Source of the DNA: Mercenaria mercenaria
Taxonomy: Eukaryota
DNA length: 64,000 bases
Reading direction: 5' to 3'
NCBI RefSeq assembly: GCF_021730395.1
Contig: NC_069369.1
Location: 29,741,250-29,805,249 of the forward strand
The notes beneath the pieces are model-generated. The model worked only from the letters and a program-made list of their open reading frames with translations, searched no databases and was not told the origin of the DNA. How positions within the stretch are numbered: position 1 is the first letter of the stretch; every line of letters begins with the position of its first letter. Both the position numbers and the translations under genes were made by a program. Of this stretch, positions 6,359 to 63,968 are shown piece by piece.

Positions 6359-6597
6359 TTAATGAACATCTGAACTTTCTGGCTTTGAAAGGTGGTTTCC
6401 CGACTCCGGAAGTGTTGAATGAGGCGTTGAATGAGGGGTGCTGTGTGAGACGGGTGGGTGTGCATCCATTGTTGTTGAGTGGACGCCCAGACTTGCGGCT
6501 GCGGCTGCAGCAGCGGCAGGATTAGGGAATGGGTAACCACCCCCACCATTCATACTTTCTGGGTATCCAGGAAAGGCATAACGCATACTGCCAGCAG
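6359..6597 (-). CDS. CtBP: CtBP terminal coding exon (AAGSMRYAFPGYPESMNGGGGYPFPNP(A)8SLGVHSTTMDAHPPVSHSTPHSTPHS...SDVH*). The stop codon is at 6359-6361
   Basis: Minus ORF 6359..6619. Acceptor ttctag|CTGCTGGC in phase with the preceding exon. The low-complexity Ala/Pro/His-rich tail resembles the Drosophila CtBP C-terminus (AAAAGGVAAA...HSTTPHDGPHSTT). Confidence 0.82.
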
Positions 6598-7184
6598 CTA
6601 GAAAAGAAAAAAAAAACATATTTATAGAAGGTACACTTCATAGCAAGACTGCACAAGGTAGCCCTAGTTATACTACTCAATGAGATATCAAACCCAAGTC
6701 ACAAATGTAACTTGAAATGGATCAGTTAAATAGAAAATAAGGTTCTTTTAACCAGTTCTTTTGCTATCTTCCTTTAAGCATTACTTACCCAAAAAAAGGA
6801 ATACTCCGCACTCCCCCCACCCCAACCCAAAAGGAAAGATAGAGGAGGCAGCCAAACAAATTTTTAGCATGTATGTGATCTCGTTATAAGACCCTTTACC
6901 TTGAAAAGGTAACAGCTTTTACTGAACCCTTTCCCTCAATAAAATACAGTATACACTTAGACCAGTAAGCCATTTAATAAATGTTTTATCAATCAACTCA
7001 CAGATTTTTTTTTTTTTTTCAATTGTAGACTTAGCCCAGCAGACAAGTTTTAAATATAGCATAAACTATCAACCATCGATTTATAAAGAGGCATTAATCT
7101 TGTTTTTATGACAGTTGCTAAAATTTACTTATATTTCATTTTGGCTAAACACCTGAACCATGTCTCATTATATAAAGAACATAC

Positions 7185-7364
7185 CTGATTTTGTGGTGGT
7201 AAAATATTCTTTATTAACACAATTTCGCAAACTATCTGGAATACGACCAACAACAGCCCGTCGTATTTCTCCAGCAGCCATTTCTCGTAATTCAGTCAAA
7301 CTTTGCTCACTGTAGAATGAGGAATGAGGTGTACAGATCAAGTTAGGACTGTCCTTCAATGGAC
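7185..7364 (-). CDS. CtBP: CtBP coding exon ([59 protein letters not shown]). A duplicated in-frame acceptor 42 bp upstream would set the high end at 7406
   Basis: Minus ORF 7168..7425. Acceptor tcttccag|GTCCATTG, donor AATCAG|GTATGTTC. Conserved [13 protein letters not shown]...NCVNKEYF motif. Confidence 0.88.
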
Positions 7365-7640
7365 CTGGAAGACAATTCAAAGAGTTAGGACTGTCCTTCA
7401 ATGGGCCTGAAAAATAATTAATCAACTATGGACTTTCCTCTGAAGGACAACAAAAACATTTCAATGAGCTAGGAATGTACTTCAAAAAACCTGAAAAACA
7501 ACTAACTGAGTTAGTAAAGTATTTCTAAGAACCTGAAAGAACCCAAACAATACATCAAGTTAGGACTGTCCTTCATGACCTGTAAAATTGTTCATCGAGT
7601 TAGGACTGTGCTGCAAAGGAACTGAAAAACAATTCAAATG
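7342..7640 (-). repeat. ~42-bp minisatellite (gttaggactgtccttcaatggrcctgraa...caattcaaaga), about seven degenerate units. The first two overlap the CtBP exon 7 acceptor
   Basis: Tandem periodicity visible directly. Units 1 and 2 each contain an AG acceptor followed by GPLKDSPN coding sequence in the same frame. Confidence 0.75.
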
Positions 7641-8765
7641 ACCTTTGGCCTTCAAGACCTTGACCTTGAACCTAGTGCTGTGCACCCTGCATCTCATCTT
7701 GATGAGGTTAACAAATGACGCTAATTTTATGAAAATCCTTCCTGATTTTTTTTTTTATTATTATTTGGGTTTTACAGCGTACCAACACAGTATGGGTTAT
7801 ATGGCGCCAAACAAGGCTACAAATTTTGGTTTCATATCTCTATATATATATTTACACCGAAATAAAAACATGAAAATCCTTCCTTCCTGTGGTTAAGAAG
7901 ATATGGAGTGGCCAAAAATTTGAACTTTCTGATCTTTGACCTGTAAGTGTGACCCTGACCCTGGGACTTGTGACCTGTGTTGTGCATTATGCAATCTTCT
8001 TGATTATGTTAATAACTGATGCAAGTTTTATGAAAACCTTCCCAACATTCAAGAAGATATAGAGCGGACATGACAAACTGGCATGTGTGAATCCAATAAA
8101 GCCCCCATATTATAGATATACTTTGTACCTGGCTGGTGTAACAATTCATAGAGCTAGAAGTGTACTTTAAAGGACCTGAAACAATTCTCCAATTTAGGAT
8201 CACTAACATTGACTTATATTCCTGTATTTTAAAGTGTTTTTTTTTTGTTGCTACTGCATGTAAGAGTCTGATTTTGATTACGTAAATGCTGTCTATCTTT
8301 CAACTTCTATCACCTTGTTTTTACATGTTCTTGACAGCTAAGATGCAACAAACAGATGATATTATTTCTAATCAACTTTGTATCAGTAATGTTTCTTTTA
8401 TAAAAAATCATCATGGTGAACGTTTGCCTTGAAACAAAACCCAAGCTTGTAGTATATGGTCCAAATTAACTATAAATCTGCCAGATGCAGTGTGTCCCTT
8501 TGAAGACCAAGGGAAATAATTCAATAATGTATGTCAACAAAAAACAAATGTTATTTAATTAACCTTTGTAACCTTCTCTCATTCAGAGATTTTATCTGGA
8601 TATAACAATAACACCACACTAATTACAATGAAACTGAACTTGCTATCATGTTTCATGTAACCTCAATCATTGTCCGTAACTGTTTTGGTTGTGAATACCT
8701 TAAACAGTTCATGTTAAATATTTATATACAGCATTATATCAAGACTGCCAAAAAATTACCCTTAC

Positions 8766-8897
8766 TTTGTGATATTACAAATGGTTCATTCTCGTGTACG
8801 TCTAGTGCTGCAGCACGCACTCTGCCATCTTTTAATGCTGAAGCGAGGGCATGTTCATCAACAAGACCACCACGCGCTGTGTTCACAAGAAACGCTC
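8766..8897 (-). CDS. CtBP: CtBP coding exon ([44 protein letters not shown]). An alternative donor 6 bp downstream would set the low end at 8760
   Basis: Acceptor ttattatag|GAGCGTTT. Donor is either CAAA|GTAAGG (the stronger site, used for these coordinates) or AGTAAGG|GTAATT. Homology to CtBP ([11 protein letters not shown]...ALDVHE) is clear. Confidence 0.85.
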
Positions 8898-9660
8898 CTA
8901 TAATAGGAATAAAAACTTTATAAAAGCCAAACTGATATATACTTACAATTATTACTAACAGTAAAATTCAATGAAAGAATAAATACTTAACCTACTTAAA
9001 CTGCTTCCACTCTGGCCGACTACCCACAATTCCAAATATTCTAACACAGATATAAGCCTAAGTGGTTCACCAGATGAATACTTTGAGCTTTTCTCTTTGG
9101 TGAACATCCACTTAGCAGTTCGTTGAAACTAATATACAGTTTTTTCTCTCTCAACTTTCTGCTGTGATGGCTGCAAAATGCTAACCATTAGAGTAAACTT
9201 GAGACAAGTCCAACCAAGGGTGCTATACGAGAAGAAATGGGTACATACAGACTAACCAAACAAGAATTTATGGACCTTTTAAGAACTTTCCTTATTTTCC
9301 AGAACAATGTTTTAACAGTTTCGAGGGTAAGAAACATACTGTCGCAAGTCGGCCAGGAGTTGAAATTTAAATATCTTCCATTACATCGCCAACAGTAACC
9401 TACCAGACAGGGCTGAAAAAATCTGGATACCAACTTAACGCAGAGAAAAAAGCGCAAGCTAGGAGCCAGTGTCTTTGTCCCACTGTTAGTCCTGCCATGG
9501 TATGAATAATGTATTTTGCCACAATACATGTACGGTCACCAGATTTACTGCATATTTCTTTTTATTGCTTTTCCCCCCACAGTTAATGAAGTTTACAAAA
9601 CATCACTCAATTTAAGAATTTTTAACCATATTACAAGACTTTTTATGTTTGTTTGTTTTG

Positions 9661-62424: not shown

Positions 62425-62635
62425 TAACCCTTACCATGCTAAATTTATATAATGAACTTGTCCATCTTCCAATTTGGACAGTACCATTAACTGTTAAAAG
62501 GGGTGTTTACCCAAAAGATACTGACTGAATAGTGAACAGTGCAGACCATGATCAGACTGGACAGATGTGCAGGCTGATCATGATCTACACTGGTCGCAAA
62601 GGCAGAACCAATCGCGTCCAGCATGGTAAGGGTTA
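62425..62635 (-). mobile_element. MITE family B, copy 9 (complete; TIR TTAACCCTTACCATGCT), in MAEA intron 7
   Basis: ttaacccttaccatgctaaattt...gtccagcatggtaagggttaa. Confidence 0.8.
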
Positions 62636-62749
62636 AAAGCTTGGAGCTTTACTTTTCTTATTCCATTTGCAGAAATTACAAATGATTTCATGTTGCAAAT
62701 TTAAACACTTTTCCAGTTATAGTATTTGGACCTTAACTGATATCACCAG

Positions 62750-62945
62750 ATACTGTTATAAATCGGAGGGTACCAGTAAGAATGCTGAATGCCCAGTATG
62801 TAGCCGCAATCTCAACAAGCTAGGTCAACACTTGCCATATGCTCATTGTGCTAATTCCAAGCTGATTTGCCACATCAGCGGGCAAGCTCTGAACGAACAT
62901 AACCCACCGATGATGTTACCAAATGGATATGTGTATGGTTGTAAT
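62750..62945 (+). CDS. MAEA: MAEA coding exon 8, RING-like domain ([66 protein letters not shown])
   Basis: Plus ORF 62667..62987. Acceptor tatcaccag|ATACTGTT, donor AAT|GTAAGTACG. Matches human [52 protein letters not shown]. Confidence 0.9.
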
Positions 62946-63419
62946 GTAAGTACGTTAAAATGTGGTAGTTTTAGGCGTGGAATTTAGATAGAGCCTTTTA
63001 AGAGTTAAAGACTTGATTTGCCAGTATTCTGTCCATCCGTCAGTCCGTCACACAAAGTGTGATCAAAGTTTTGTAAGAAGAACGTCCTGTAGTCTTCAGT
63101 CAAATTTAATGTACTTAAACATTTAAAATTGCAAAATTACATGTGCGGAACAGTTGTGCAATAGTGAATAGTTTATTTGGTAATAAAAAAACTAATGTAA
63201 TTAGAACTTAAAAAATAGGTTGATTGAACAGTGTATTTGATGCAGTTCTTTAAAAGCGAAACAATTGTAACACTTGTAACCATGGGGACATCCTCTGTTG
63301 ATTGCACTGTCAATCACTTAACAATCCATATATGTGAACAATTTTGTATTAAAAATTGAATAAATTTGTGTGTGTATAAGTTGATTTGTAGTCGCCACCG
63401 GTAACCCACATGGGCGACT

Positions 63420-63650
63420 CCTCCAGAAGACTGTTAATTAATAGTGTTAGTGGAAGGATAGTGCAAGATACAGAAGATGCTCCAATTCCAGAAGCTTCCC
63501 TGGTTCTTTATAGCATGCAAAGTGTAAGGCATCTTTACACGGGACTCTTACCCCAATGTTAGAATTTTAGTTGGAGAAGTGGGGGCTTGAACTCACGACC
63601 CCAGGTTTCATAGTCAAACAGTGTTACCACTGGACCACTGCGTCCACTCT
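63420..63650 (-). mobile_element. tRNA-like SINE (third family: gtggacgcagtggtccagtggtaacac...gggtcgtgagttcaagccc)
   Basis: A tRNA-derived head with no acceptor-stem complementarity. Lies in MAEA intron 8. Confidence 0.5.
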
Positions 63651-63866
63651 GATTTAATAAATATTAATGATTACTTAATTTAAATGGTATCATATTGAAG
63701 ATGTACTGAGTACTCGATCTAATTTAAGTAGCTTAAGCCCAGTTTTGTTGAAGAACAACAGTGACTGGATCAATTTTGTCAGTTTGTAAGAAACTCAATT
63801 TCCATATTCAGTATAAGTGTATTTTCAGATTTGATTAATTTTCAGTATTATTCACAATATTTTCAG

Positions 63867-63968
63867 GCATTAGAGGAGATGGCCGCAAGGAATGAGGGCA
63901 ATGTTTTCTGTCCTAGAGGCAAGGAGGCTTTCCATATTGAAAAGGCAGAGAAAGTTTTTGTGATGTGA
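63867..63968 (+). CDS. MAEA: MAEA terminal coding exon (ALEEMAARNEGNVFCPRGKEAFHIEKAEKVFVM*). The stop TGA is at 63966-63968
   Basis: Acceptor aatattttcag|GCATTAGAGG. Matches human [31 protein letters not shown]. A MITE-A copy begins 13 bp after the stop codon. Confidence 0.85.
   Translation, partial: ALEEMAARNEGNVFCPRGKEAFHIEKAEKVFVM

Follow-up and report, generated by a model that had tools for sequence, protein, structure and literature searches.

CtBP and MAEA in the clam Mercenaria mercenaria form a very old head-to-head pair of neighbouring genes

A real and very old pair of neighbouring genes is carried by the stretch of Mercenaria mercenaria DNA analysed here (64,000 nucleotides, hereafter the window): CtBP on the minus strand and MAEA on the plus strand, diverging from ATGs that stand 29,238 bp apart (coding starts, not transcription starts), within the distance of about 30 kb that an initial annotation of this DNA had allowed between the divergent first exons. 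Seven other species from five major animal lineages show this adjacency and orientation in independent assemblies, and the pair fits the published definition of the conserved ancestral microsyntenic pairs (CAMPs), of which 595 were catalogued genome-wide (Irimia et al. 2012, Genome Res 22:2356; PMC3514665). That the two genes stay together through selection on shared or interleaved regulation, and not by luck, is our inference.

The CtBP gene is complete, with eight coding exons at 6359–16882 (Table 1), and the translation of this model matches exactly the 449-aa 'C-terminal-binding protein-like isoform X2 [Mercenaria mercenaria]' (P0121). The initial annotation had placed a CtBP ortholog on the minus strand with exons within 6359–15597; its coordinates proved correct, the splice sites of exons 2–8 (15597–6359) all being AG/GT, and the 5' exon that it had left unlocated was placed at 16882–16822 by six-frame search with the N-terminus of P0121. 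This first exon has the donor GTAAGT and, together with 54 bp of 5' UTR, is 83% identical to Mactra. An acceptor-like tttatttatttatag about 80 bp upstream of it is compatible with a further non-coding 5' exon.

Table 1. Coordinates (window positions) of the CtBP and MAEA coding exons and of the features between them.
Feature	Position	Strand	Remarks
CtBP exon 8	6359-6597	-	Ala/Pro/His/Ser-rich C-terminal tail and TAA stop
CtBP exon 7	7185-7364	-
CtBP exon 6	8766-8897	-
CtBP exon 5	11045-11170	-
CtBP exon 4	12129-12434	-	carries NAD-binding motif GLGRVG
CtBP exon 3	14368-14512	-
CtBP exon 2	15437-15597	-	starts in phase 1
CtBP coding exon 1	16822-16882	-	ATG at 16882; MENGKTFQPVKRPRLDVPAT plus first base (A) of next codon ATG
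CtBP-MAEA spacer	16883-46120		29,238 bp between start codons
Conserved non-coding element, single-copy	39356-39418		87.5% identity over 64 bp to Mactra, collinear
Conserved MAEA promoter-region core	45885-45949	+	CCGCGGGATTCCTCGCGCTATTCA..., 170-235 bp upstream of MAEA ATG
MAEA exon 1	46121-46159	+	MADIKALEHPTLK
MAEA exon 2	50050-50235	+
MAEA exon 3	51915-52118	+
MAEA exon 4	56709-56831	+
MAEA exon 5	57531-57607	+	ends in phase 2
MAEA exon 6	58420-58531	+
MAEA exon 7	61223-61356	+	ends in phase 2
MAEA exon 8	62750-62945	+	RING-like region
MAEA exon 9	63867-63968	+	includes TGA stop

In phmmer searches against PDB chains, the clam CtBP matched human CTBP2 (E=3.4e-146) and CTBP1 (E=1.3e-145), followed as next family by the generic D-2-hydroxyacid dehydrogenases (about 1e-33), and Pfam detected 2-Hacid_dh_C (E=7e-53) and 2-Hacid_dh (E=3e-29). 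The identity to a human CTBP1 sequence is 73%. The motifs NTARGG, HENEPF and CTPHSSFYS match their human CTBP2 counterparts, and the alignment keeps the Arg/Glu/His positions of the catalytic triad (R266/E295/H315 in human CTBP1 numbering). True CtBPs are told apart from dehydrogenase homologues by a long, low-complexity, unstructured C-terminal domain (Raicu et al. 2023; PMC9907507), and the approximately 80 residues that follow the dehydrogenase core in exon 8, rich in A, P, H, S and G, would by their composition qualify as such a domain. The N-terminal cleft region appears conserved as well; binding of PxDLS-motif partners and corepressor activity are biochemical properties of the family. 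With a predicted dehydrogenase fold, and with a similarity to animal CtBPs that far exceeds that to metabolic dehydrogenases, the minus-strand gene is confirmed, at the level of sequence, as an ortholog of the CtBP corepressor.

The MAEA gene is also complete, with nine exons for a product of 390 aa, and all exon coordinates given for it in the initial annotation (plus strand, 46121–63968) were correct. The product matched human MAEA (8pjn_i) with E=1.8e-141 over residues 25–396, and the matches to its paralog RMND5A (6e-19) and to yeast Fyv10 (1e-19) were weaker; Pfam detected CTLH/CRA (CTLH, E=1e-45), and the identity to Mactra MAEA is 91%. The C-terminal degenerate RING (RING-Gid) region is recognised in the residues encoded by exons 8 and 9, among them CPRGKE, whose alignment with the human RING region is gapless; the zf-RING_UBOX model of Pfam stayed below threshold on clam MAEA, though it is precomputed for several orthologues. 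Judged from these similarities, the plus-strand gene is confirmed as MAEA/Fyv10 (Gid9), a subunit of the CTLH/GID E3 ligase, and not as RMND5/Gid2. Its eight introns (16.7 kb in sum) are all GT-AG and show exactly the phases that had been claimed, 0,0,0,0,2,0,2,0. These phases are, as also claimed, largely conserved, all eight introns having homologous positions and phases in Takifugu; this conservation is unremarkable: the six C-terminal intron positions and phases are common to the clam and even a sponge.

The linkage had been proposed to be ancient, and examination of the neighbourhood in lophotrochozoan, ecdysozoan and deuterostome assemblies was favourable: the head-to-head arrangement of CtBP(-) and MAEA(+) was seen directly in six genera, Lottia, Mactra, Capitella, Nymphon, Branchiostoma and Takifugu. 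The distance between them is 6.6 kb in Lottia, 47.5 kb in Mactra and 15.1 kb in Nymphon. In Capitella, MAEA lies 5.2 kb from the annotated start of CtBP and 2.3 kb from its THAP first exon. In Branchiostoma about 1 kb separates the annotated ends, and the distance from MAEA to the THAP exon is 8.1 kb; in Takifugu the annotated ends are separated by 0.8 kb, and the conserved CtBP exon 2 is found 9.5 kb upstream. Both of these short gaps rest on predicted first exons, and that of Takifugu CtBP (MFHPLAG...) is unlike the canonical CtBP N-terminus. Vertebrates have a second CtBP paralogue, CTBP2, elsewhere in the genome; human CTBP1 and MAEA are divergently oriented in the NCBI/Ensembl annotation. 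The adjacency claimed for human CTBP1 and MAEA agrees with a published table, which gives the order SPON2-CTBP1-C4orf42-MAEA and a gap of 40.8 kb (PMC3132460). No gene is called between the two in Mollusca (window, Mactra, Lottia), Annelida (Capitella), Cephalochordata (Branchiostoma) or Vertebrata (Takifugu; human, PMC3132460), and the sole called gene between them in Arthropoda (Nymphon), a 156-aa reverse-transcriptase fragment, is under the CAMP limit of four intervening genes.

Weaker hints were obtained from other species: CtBP and MAEA lie on contigs of the same size in 13 of the 15 species common to both match lists, and carry adjacent locus tags in Nucella and adjacent UniProt accessions in Strigamia. 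A point on the opposing side is that nothing is called within 10 kb upstream of MAEA in Saccoglossus. No 2-Hacid_dh gene was found beside MAEA in Sycon (sponge) or Mnemiopsis (ctenophore). This was to be expected, since Cnidaria and Porifera reportedly lack true CtBP, a bilaterian novelty according to the same report (PMC9907507); for the same reason the pair cannot predate Bilateria.

The clam spacer is satellite- and repeat-rich and consists mostly of repetitive DNA. At least 36% of it is repeated elsewhere in the window (self-BLAST), and tandem arrays occupy 21.7–23.1, 24.65–25.3, 30.6–31.2, 32.6–33.7, 33.9–34.4 and 38.3–38.6 kb. No Pfam family was detected in 103 of its 111 stop-to-stop ORFs of at least 56 aa, the eight omitted ORFs being low-complexity satellite, poly-Pro and poly-Gly frames, and no Rfam match or tRNA was found in the spacer. 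Upon comparison of the window with the Mactra MAEA locus by blastn (word size 9, E<=1e-3; a single pairwise comparison, which weak elements could escape), only exons, the MAEA promoter core, one spacer element and one repeat were aligned. The spacer element, located 6.7 kb upstream of the MAEA ATG in the window and 8.3 kb upstream in Mactra, is a candidate cis-regulatory element. The rest of the Mercenaria spacer was not alignable with that of Mactra, and with only about 64 bp conserved between these two clam families, the case for a dense, shared regulatory landscape is thin. The MAEA promoter core lies inside a CpG-rich interval (45.5–46.25 kb) with a CpG o/e of 1.0–1.1 vs 0.45 for the whole window, and the CpG scan of the window detected no such block at the ATG exon of CtBP. 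Because of this and of the 29 kb between the coding starts, a literal bidirectional promoter is not supported in the clam.

The pair is best explained as an inherited 5'-5' pair about as old as Bilateria, in which the two genes have been read outward from a single intergenic interval since about the origin of CtBP itself. As to why it persists, we lean, with moderate confidence, toward cis-regulatory entanglement of both 5' ends as the most likely mechanism. The interval is only 2–10 kb in small genomes, and in Capitella and amphioxus it also houses the alternative THAP first exon of CtBP, presumably with its own promoter, near the promoter of MAEA, so that a break at nearly any point in it would part one gene from its promoter or nearby elements and be disfavoured by selection. 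Satellites and interspersed repeats have swollen it to 29 kb in the clam and to 47.5 kb in Mactra, with the pair unbroken. The persistence of the conserved non-coding element and the MAEA promoter core in an otherwise unalignable spacer counts in favour of this reading of an inherited, entangled pair. It is also possible, with lower probability, that an ancestral adjacency never selected as a pair has so far been spared in slowly rearranging genomes, the ancestrally short spacer offering a small target and the pair decaying in fast-rearranging lineages. The keepers (amphioxus, Lottia, Capitella, vertebrates and bivalves) are indeed lineages of conservative gene order (PMC3514665), the pair is apparently broken in one beetle at least, Ceutorhynchus (different chromosomes, as judged from contig sizes only), the spacer is almost wholly unconserved between Mercenaria and Mactra, and the window shows no sign of a promoter common to both genes. 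Such neutral persistence, however, fits poorly with the same orientation retained in five major lineages, one of them represented by a pycnogonid arthropod, with retention despite the large neutral targets offered by spacers of 29–47 kb in clams and about 41 kb in human, and with the excess of CAMPs as a class over random expectation, by orders of magnitude, together with their excess co-expression (PMC3514665).

A genomic regulatory block, in which long-range enhancers of CtBP would reside within the introns of a bystander MAEA and separation would misregulate CtBP, is considered improbable. A developmental corepressor beside a broadly acting ligase subunit does resemble the 'trans-dev plus bystander' combination (definition in PMC3514665), and the eight MAEA introns offer space in the clam; however, the sole unique conserved element lies in the spacer and not in MAEA, no conserved non-coding block was detected in the MAEA introns between Mercenaria and Mactra, and MAEA is as compact as 3.8 kb in Lottia, 2.8 kb in Capitella and 4.5 kb in Takifugu, with scant room for intronic enhancers. 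Independent juxtaposition in clam and vertebrates, or misassembly of the contig, has a negligible probability: the same arrangement appears in the independent assemblies described above, the window is without N runs, and gene-order randomisation gives an expectation of 0.015 pairs per genome for conservation in at least four lineages (PMC3514665). Nothing was found in favour of chance juxtaposition, which is refuted by the cross-species look-ups.

Among known systems, the CAMPs are the closest likeness. As in that class, CtBP and MAEA are non-paralogous, belonging to different Pfam families (2-Hacid_dh and CTLH), and lie adjacent, with no gene between them, in at least four major metazoan lineages; their conserved 5'-5' orientation is the one that dominates the class and is best conserved in it; the spacer of the pair, 29 kb in the clam and about 41 kb in human, is of typical size against the mean of 29 kb for those human 5'-5' CAMPs whose orientation is conserved (PMC3514665). 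The main text of Irimia et al. (2012; PMC3514665) mentions neither CtBP nor MAEA. HSPE1-HSPD1, the textbook CAMP, has a tight bidirectional promoter (<1 kb), from which CtBP-MAEA, to judge by its coding starts, differs in most species examined. Bidirectional-promoter pairs are defined as divergent genes whose transcription start sites are separated by less than 1 kb. The orientation fits; the distance between coding starts is 29,238 bp in the clam, 47.5 kb in Mactra and 15 kb in Nymphon, and that between annotated ends, which depend on predicted first exons, is about 1 kb in Branchiostoma and 0.8 kb in Takifugu. The pair shares with genomic regulatory blocks a transcriptional regulator long kept beside an unrelated housekeeping-type gene, but bystanders in such blocks hold conserved elements in their introns, of which none was detected in clam MAEA by the Mercenaria-Mactra blastn, and the putative bystander is, unlike in these blocks, very compact in small genomes.

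THAP-domain isoforms of CtBP have been described (Nicholas et al. 2008, J Mol Biol 375:1, as cited in PMC9907507). The first exon of CtBP that encodes THAP sits, in both Capitella and Branchiostoma, inside the spacer facing MAEA; clam CtBP begins instead with a short exon of 20 residues, and no THAP exon was detected across the 64-kb window, the Lottia spacer or the Mactra flanks. Human 4p16.3 (CTBP1, CTBP1-DT or C4orf42, and MAEA) has the same two orthologues adjacent as in the clam, but its spacer carries an annotated divergent non-coding transcript. CtBP-MAEA is one unexceptional case of a class of gene pairs that is already known.

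The CtBP gene on the minus strand of the window (AT-rich, about 36% G+C, zero Ns, of invertebrate appearance) includes seven exons with canonical AG/GT borders, and an additional 5' exon is necessary because the exon beginning at 15597 starts in phase 1. This exon, left unlocated in the initial annotation, was identified at 16882-16822 with the donor GTAAGT by a search using the N-terminus of P0121 (C-terminal-binding protein-like isoform X2 of Mercenaria mercenaria, 449 aa), and thus the first coding exon of CtBP is now fixed for annotation of the clam genome. P0121 was the closest database protein (100% identity), and the translation of the eight exons agrees with it exactly over 449 residues, which assigns the window to the hard clam M. 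mercenaria or a very close relative. Among PDB chains, human CTBP2 and CTBP1 were matched at E of about 1e-146 whereas the next family stayed at about 1e-33, and both 2-hydroxyacid dehydrogenase domains were detected by Pfam, confirming the proposed CtBP orthologue. An ATG lying in frame at 15619, before the acceptor of exon 2, was rejected as the start, the annotated N-terminus being mapped to the separate exon at 16882. Since an acceptor-like sequence, tttatttatttatag, precedes the CtBP ATG by about 80 bp, one more non-coding 5' exon may exist. On the other side of the gene, a block of 56 bp, collinear with Mactra and 84% identical to it in a 62-column alignment, lies 5.6 kb past the CtBP stop, as compared with 7.6 kb in Mactra; it may belong to a long 3' UTR of CtBP or to a regulatory element downstream of the gene.

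The MAEA gene on the plus strand consists of nine GT-AG exons encoding 390 residues. The product was matched to human MAEA (8pjn_i) at E=1.8e-141 as against 6e-19 for the paralogous RMND5A, carries CTLH/CRA by Pfam and is 91% identical to Mactra MAEA, so its assignment as the MAEA orthologue holds. The intron phases read initially as 0,0,0,0,2,0,2,0 were correct, and so was their conservation: all eight introns are at homologous positions and in the same phases in Mercenaria, Mactra, Lottia and Capitella, and also in Takifugu (in a model with one extra, dubious exon) and Branchiostoma (with one micro-exon more). Saccoglossus MAEA has one intron missing and one additional, and the C-terminal six introns are common to clam and sponge. 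Such conservation is ordinary for a metazoan gene of this kind, itself conserved. A sigma-70/terminator scan of the MAEA promoter was disregarded, as its model is bacterial.

The ATGs of the two divergent genes are separated by a spacer of 29,238 bp, in agreement with the initial upper estimate of about 30 kb. For comparison with other species, orthologues were collected by homology searches and their genomic places were then looked up. The divergent arrangement, which the initial annotation proposed to check in other lophotrochozoan, ecdysozoan and deuterostome assemblies, was found in Lottia gigantea (gastropod; a 466-aa 2-Hacid_dh gene on the opposite strand 6.6 kb upstream of MAEA), Mactra antiquata (bivalve; 47.5 kb), Capitella teleta (annelid; an opposite-strand 2-Hacid_dh gene upstream of MAEA, 5.2 kb to the annotated start), Nymphon striatum (pycnogonid; on one contig, 15.1 kb, with only a reverse-transcriptase fragment between), Branchiostoma floridae (amphioxus; opposite-strand CtBP model, annotated ends about 1 kb apart) and Takifugu flavidus (teleost; opposite-strand 459-aa CtBP model). 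In Takifugu the annotated ends are 0.8 kb apart, a gap that depends on the model because the predicted first CtBP exon (MFHPLAGFG...) looks non-canonical; the conserved exon 2 is located 9.5 kb upstream. In the Takifugu MAEA model (protein P0089), the N-terminus is extended by 18 residues and an additional exon of 63 residues stands between conserved exons 1 and 2; both deposited models look partly wrong. In human, we take CTBP1 to be on the minus and MAEA on the plus strand, as in the reference annotation. The gene order at 4p16.3 is SPON2, CTBP1 (ending at 1,232,908), C4orf42, MAEA (starting at 1,273,672) and KIAA1530 (gene table in PMC3132460). The spacer scales with genome size, from about 2-10 kb in compact genomes to 15-48 kb in larger ones.

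Weaker hints point in the same direction. CtBP and MAEA are on equal-sized contigs in 13 of the 15 species common to both hit lists (the exceptions being the beetle Ceutorhynchus and a horseshoe crab), and the two genes have consecutive locus tags in Nucella and consecutive UniProt accessions in Strigamia. Within 10 kb upstream of Saccoglossus MAEA, neither a called gene nor a CtBP exon was detected; spacers longer than 10 kb are known elsewhere. The divergent CtBP-MAEA adjacency is ancestral and has been retained across Bilateria. As a separate observation, both Lottia and Branchiostoma have an HDNR-domain gene (PF15115) in tail-to-tail orientation downstream of MAEA, possibly adding a third member to the conserved block; none was called there in Mactra, Capitella or Takifugu, and the clam window stops 32 bp past the MAEA stop, short of any downstream HDNR gene.

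Outside Bilateria, the gene next upstream of MAEA belongs to FAM210 in the sponge Sycon ciliatum, and in the ctenophore Mnemiopsis leidyi it is co-directional and without an assigned family. Lack of CtBP at these places is expected, because true CtBP is reported to be absent in Cnidaria and Porifera, where dehydrogenase homologues show only about 30% identity, and its origin was placed in the bilaterian stem (Raicu et al. 2023, PMC9907507). The linkage may therefore date back to the origin of CtBP. The 50%-identity representatives of MAEA and two clusters included ctenophore, sponge, acoel, nematode, protist and fungal sequences, and no cnidarian one.

Positions of the clam genes, repeats, CpG-rich blocks and conserved elements, and of THAP and HDNR features in loci (L) fetched from other species
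Feature	Sequence	Position	Strand	Remarks
CtBP, seven exons	window	6359-15597	minus	
MAEA, nine exons	window	46121-63968	plus	
Satellite-like array	window	21719-23064		unit 43/132 bp
Satellite-like array	window	24650-25336		unit 33/65 bp
Satellite-like array	window	30573-31186		unit 136/280 bp
Satellite-like array	window	32645-33694		unit 155 bp
Satellite-like array	window	33942-34407		unit 166 bp
Satellite-like array	window	38304-38635		unit 163 bp
Interspersed element, about 200 bp	window	1434-1671, 11444-11642, 47549-47706, 52180-52405, 60964-61202, 62092-62305		
Same element, fragments	window	39096, 50604, 62549		
Unclassified repeat, copy 1	window	18003-18227	minus	about 1.1 kb from CtBP ATG
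Unclassified repeat, copy 2	window	45030-45251	minus	about 0.9 kb from MAEA ATG
CpG-rich block	window	19001-19750		single-copy within window
CpG-rich block	window	26001-26750		single-copy within window
CpG-rich block	window	36751-37250		right end touches repeat (about 37.2 kb)
CpG-rich block	window	48501-49500		in MAEA intron 1, overlapping local repeat
CtBP 5' UTR	window			aligns to Mactra
64 bp element	window	39356-39418		aligns to Mactra; single-copy, collinear
MAEA promoter core, 66 bp	window	45885-45949		aligns to Mactra
Block downstream of CtBP	window	698-753		aligns to Mactra
THAP exon	L002	7742-7584 and 5085-4957	minus	
THAP exon	L003	3049-2885		
THAP exon	L004	1921-1757		
HDNR gene	L001	22859-23816		
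HDNR gene	L003	22823-27254		
HDNR gene	L004	19442-24248		
First exon of CtBP model	L007 (Takifugu)	9100-9189		

The clam spacer was analyzed for its content. Among its stop-to-stop ORFs of at least 56 aa, no Pfam family was found in 103 of 111, the remaining eight frames (low-complexity satellite, poly-Pro and poly-Gly) being left out of the scan, and neither the Rfam gathering scan of the whole window nor the ARAGORN tRNA scan gave a hit; these scans cover known families, with lineage-specific genes and lncRNAs beyond their reach. At least 36% of the spacer is repeated elsewhere in the 64 kb window, and much of it is occupied by at least six tandem, satellite-like arrays. The 29 kb interval is thus a repeat-inflated spacer, with no recognisable gene left out of the annotation. 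A strong C-over-G skew (-0.3) was noted at 22-26 kb. The interspersed element of about 200 bp, MITE- or SINE-like with self-matches in reverse orientation, is present in at least six copies in the introns and flanks of CtBP and MAEA alike, and none was found in the loci fetched from other species. The two copies of the unclassified repeat near the spacer ends carry similar ORF fragments (...FVEP..G....I.FG..V.V..S.R.C....FDMHGPILFIFGM...), and ORFs in the introns and 3' flank look like repeat debris.

The CpG observed/expected ratio, 0.45 window-wide, increases to 1.0-1.1 at 45.5-46.25 kb just upstream of the MAEA ATG, and no rise was observed at the CtBP ATG exon. Four other blocks reach 0.9-1.5, and could mark unannotated promoters, for instance that of a non-coding transcript or of a CtBP start farther upstream. 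Alignment of the spacer with the Mactra locus failed except at three places, the CtBP 5' UTR, the MAEA promoter core and a 64 bp element. The last is 87.5% identical to Mactra, includes GATA-like, TGACAG-like and AACAAT-like motifs by eye, and is a candidate enhancer.

The CtBP-MAEA spacer of Capitella and Branchiostoma includes a first coding exon of CtBP that encodes a THAP zinc finger (MPTTCGFPNCKFRSRY...); in Capitella, 2.3 kb separate it from the MAEA start. The protein sequence encoded by the Capitella exon is 87-89% identical to that of Lamellibrachia and to that of amphioxus, and the latter two share 77%; the Lamellibrachia protein P0152 is a THAP-CtBP fusion product. Searches by tblastn and profile HMMs with queries from Capitella, Lamellibrachia and Branchiostoma detected no THAP-type first exon in the clam window, the Lottia spacer or the Mactra flanks, and these molluscs therefore appear to have lost it.

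The pair is most probably kept together by regulatory entanglement of both 5' ends. The spacer of Capitella and amphioxus is densely functional in that the conserved THAP exon is also located within it; the clam interval is repeat-inflated, without the THAP exon and with little conserved sequence, and the window gives no support to a literal bidirectional promoter. Neutral persistence of the ancestral adjacency is to be taken as a serious alternative to entanglement. A genomic regulatory block, with CtBP enhancers inside MAEA introns, is supported neither by the comparison of Mercenaria with Mactra, in which zero conserved blocks were found in the MAEA introns, nor by MAEA in small genomes, where it is very compact. 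In yeast and mammals, the targets of the CTLH ligase are enzymes of metabolism and of the NAD pathway. One may imagine that CtBP arose or first landed beside MAEA in the bilaterian stem and has since been held as a co-regulated unit, the shared 5' interval (with the THAP exon where present) being one regulatory module that couples an NAD(H)-sensing corepressor to the CTLH ligase; we regard this whole scenario as improbable.

Chance or misassembly is excluded as the source of the adjacency. By shuffling of gene order, 0.015 conserved ancestral microsyntenic pairs (CAMPs) are expected per genome, whereas 595 were found (Irimia et al. 2012, PMC3514665). What the initial annotation described as a divergent pair corresponding to human 4p16.3 is confirmed, and its interpretation supported. 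Both genes are highly conserved, single-copy in most invertebrates and transcribed divergently in molluscs, annelids, an arthropod, amphioxus and vertebrates, providing a clean and easily scored microsynteny marker of Bilateria; knowledge of either protein itself is unchanged. With a linkage perhaps as old as CtBP, the locus is a handy test case for whether old divergent pairs are kept by shared regulation or by luck.

None of the papers in the library searched names MAEA and CTBP1 as a pair in the context of synteny or of a bidirectional promoter. Among CAMPs, the 5'-5' orientation is dominant and best conserved, and human 5'-5' pairs of conserved orientation have a mean spacer of 29 kb (PMC3514665). 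Since human, amphioxus, Lottia and Capitella were among the species of that study (PMC3514665), CtBP-MAEA is very probably already in its supplementary list. The pair, a CAMP by definition in five lineages, is a member of this known class, either new or, more likely, catalogued already but unremarked.
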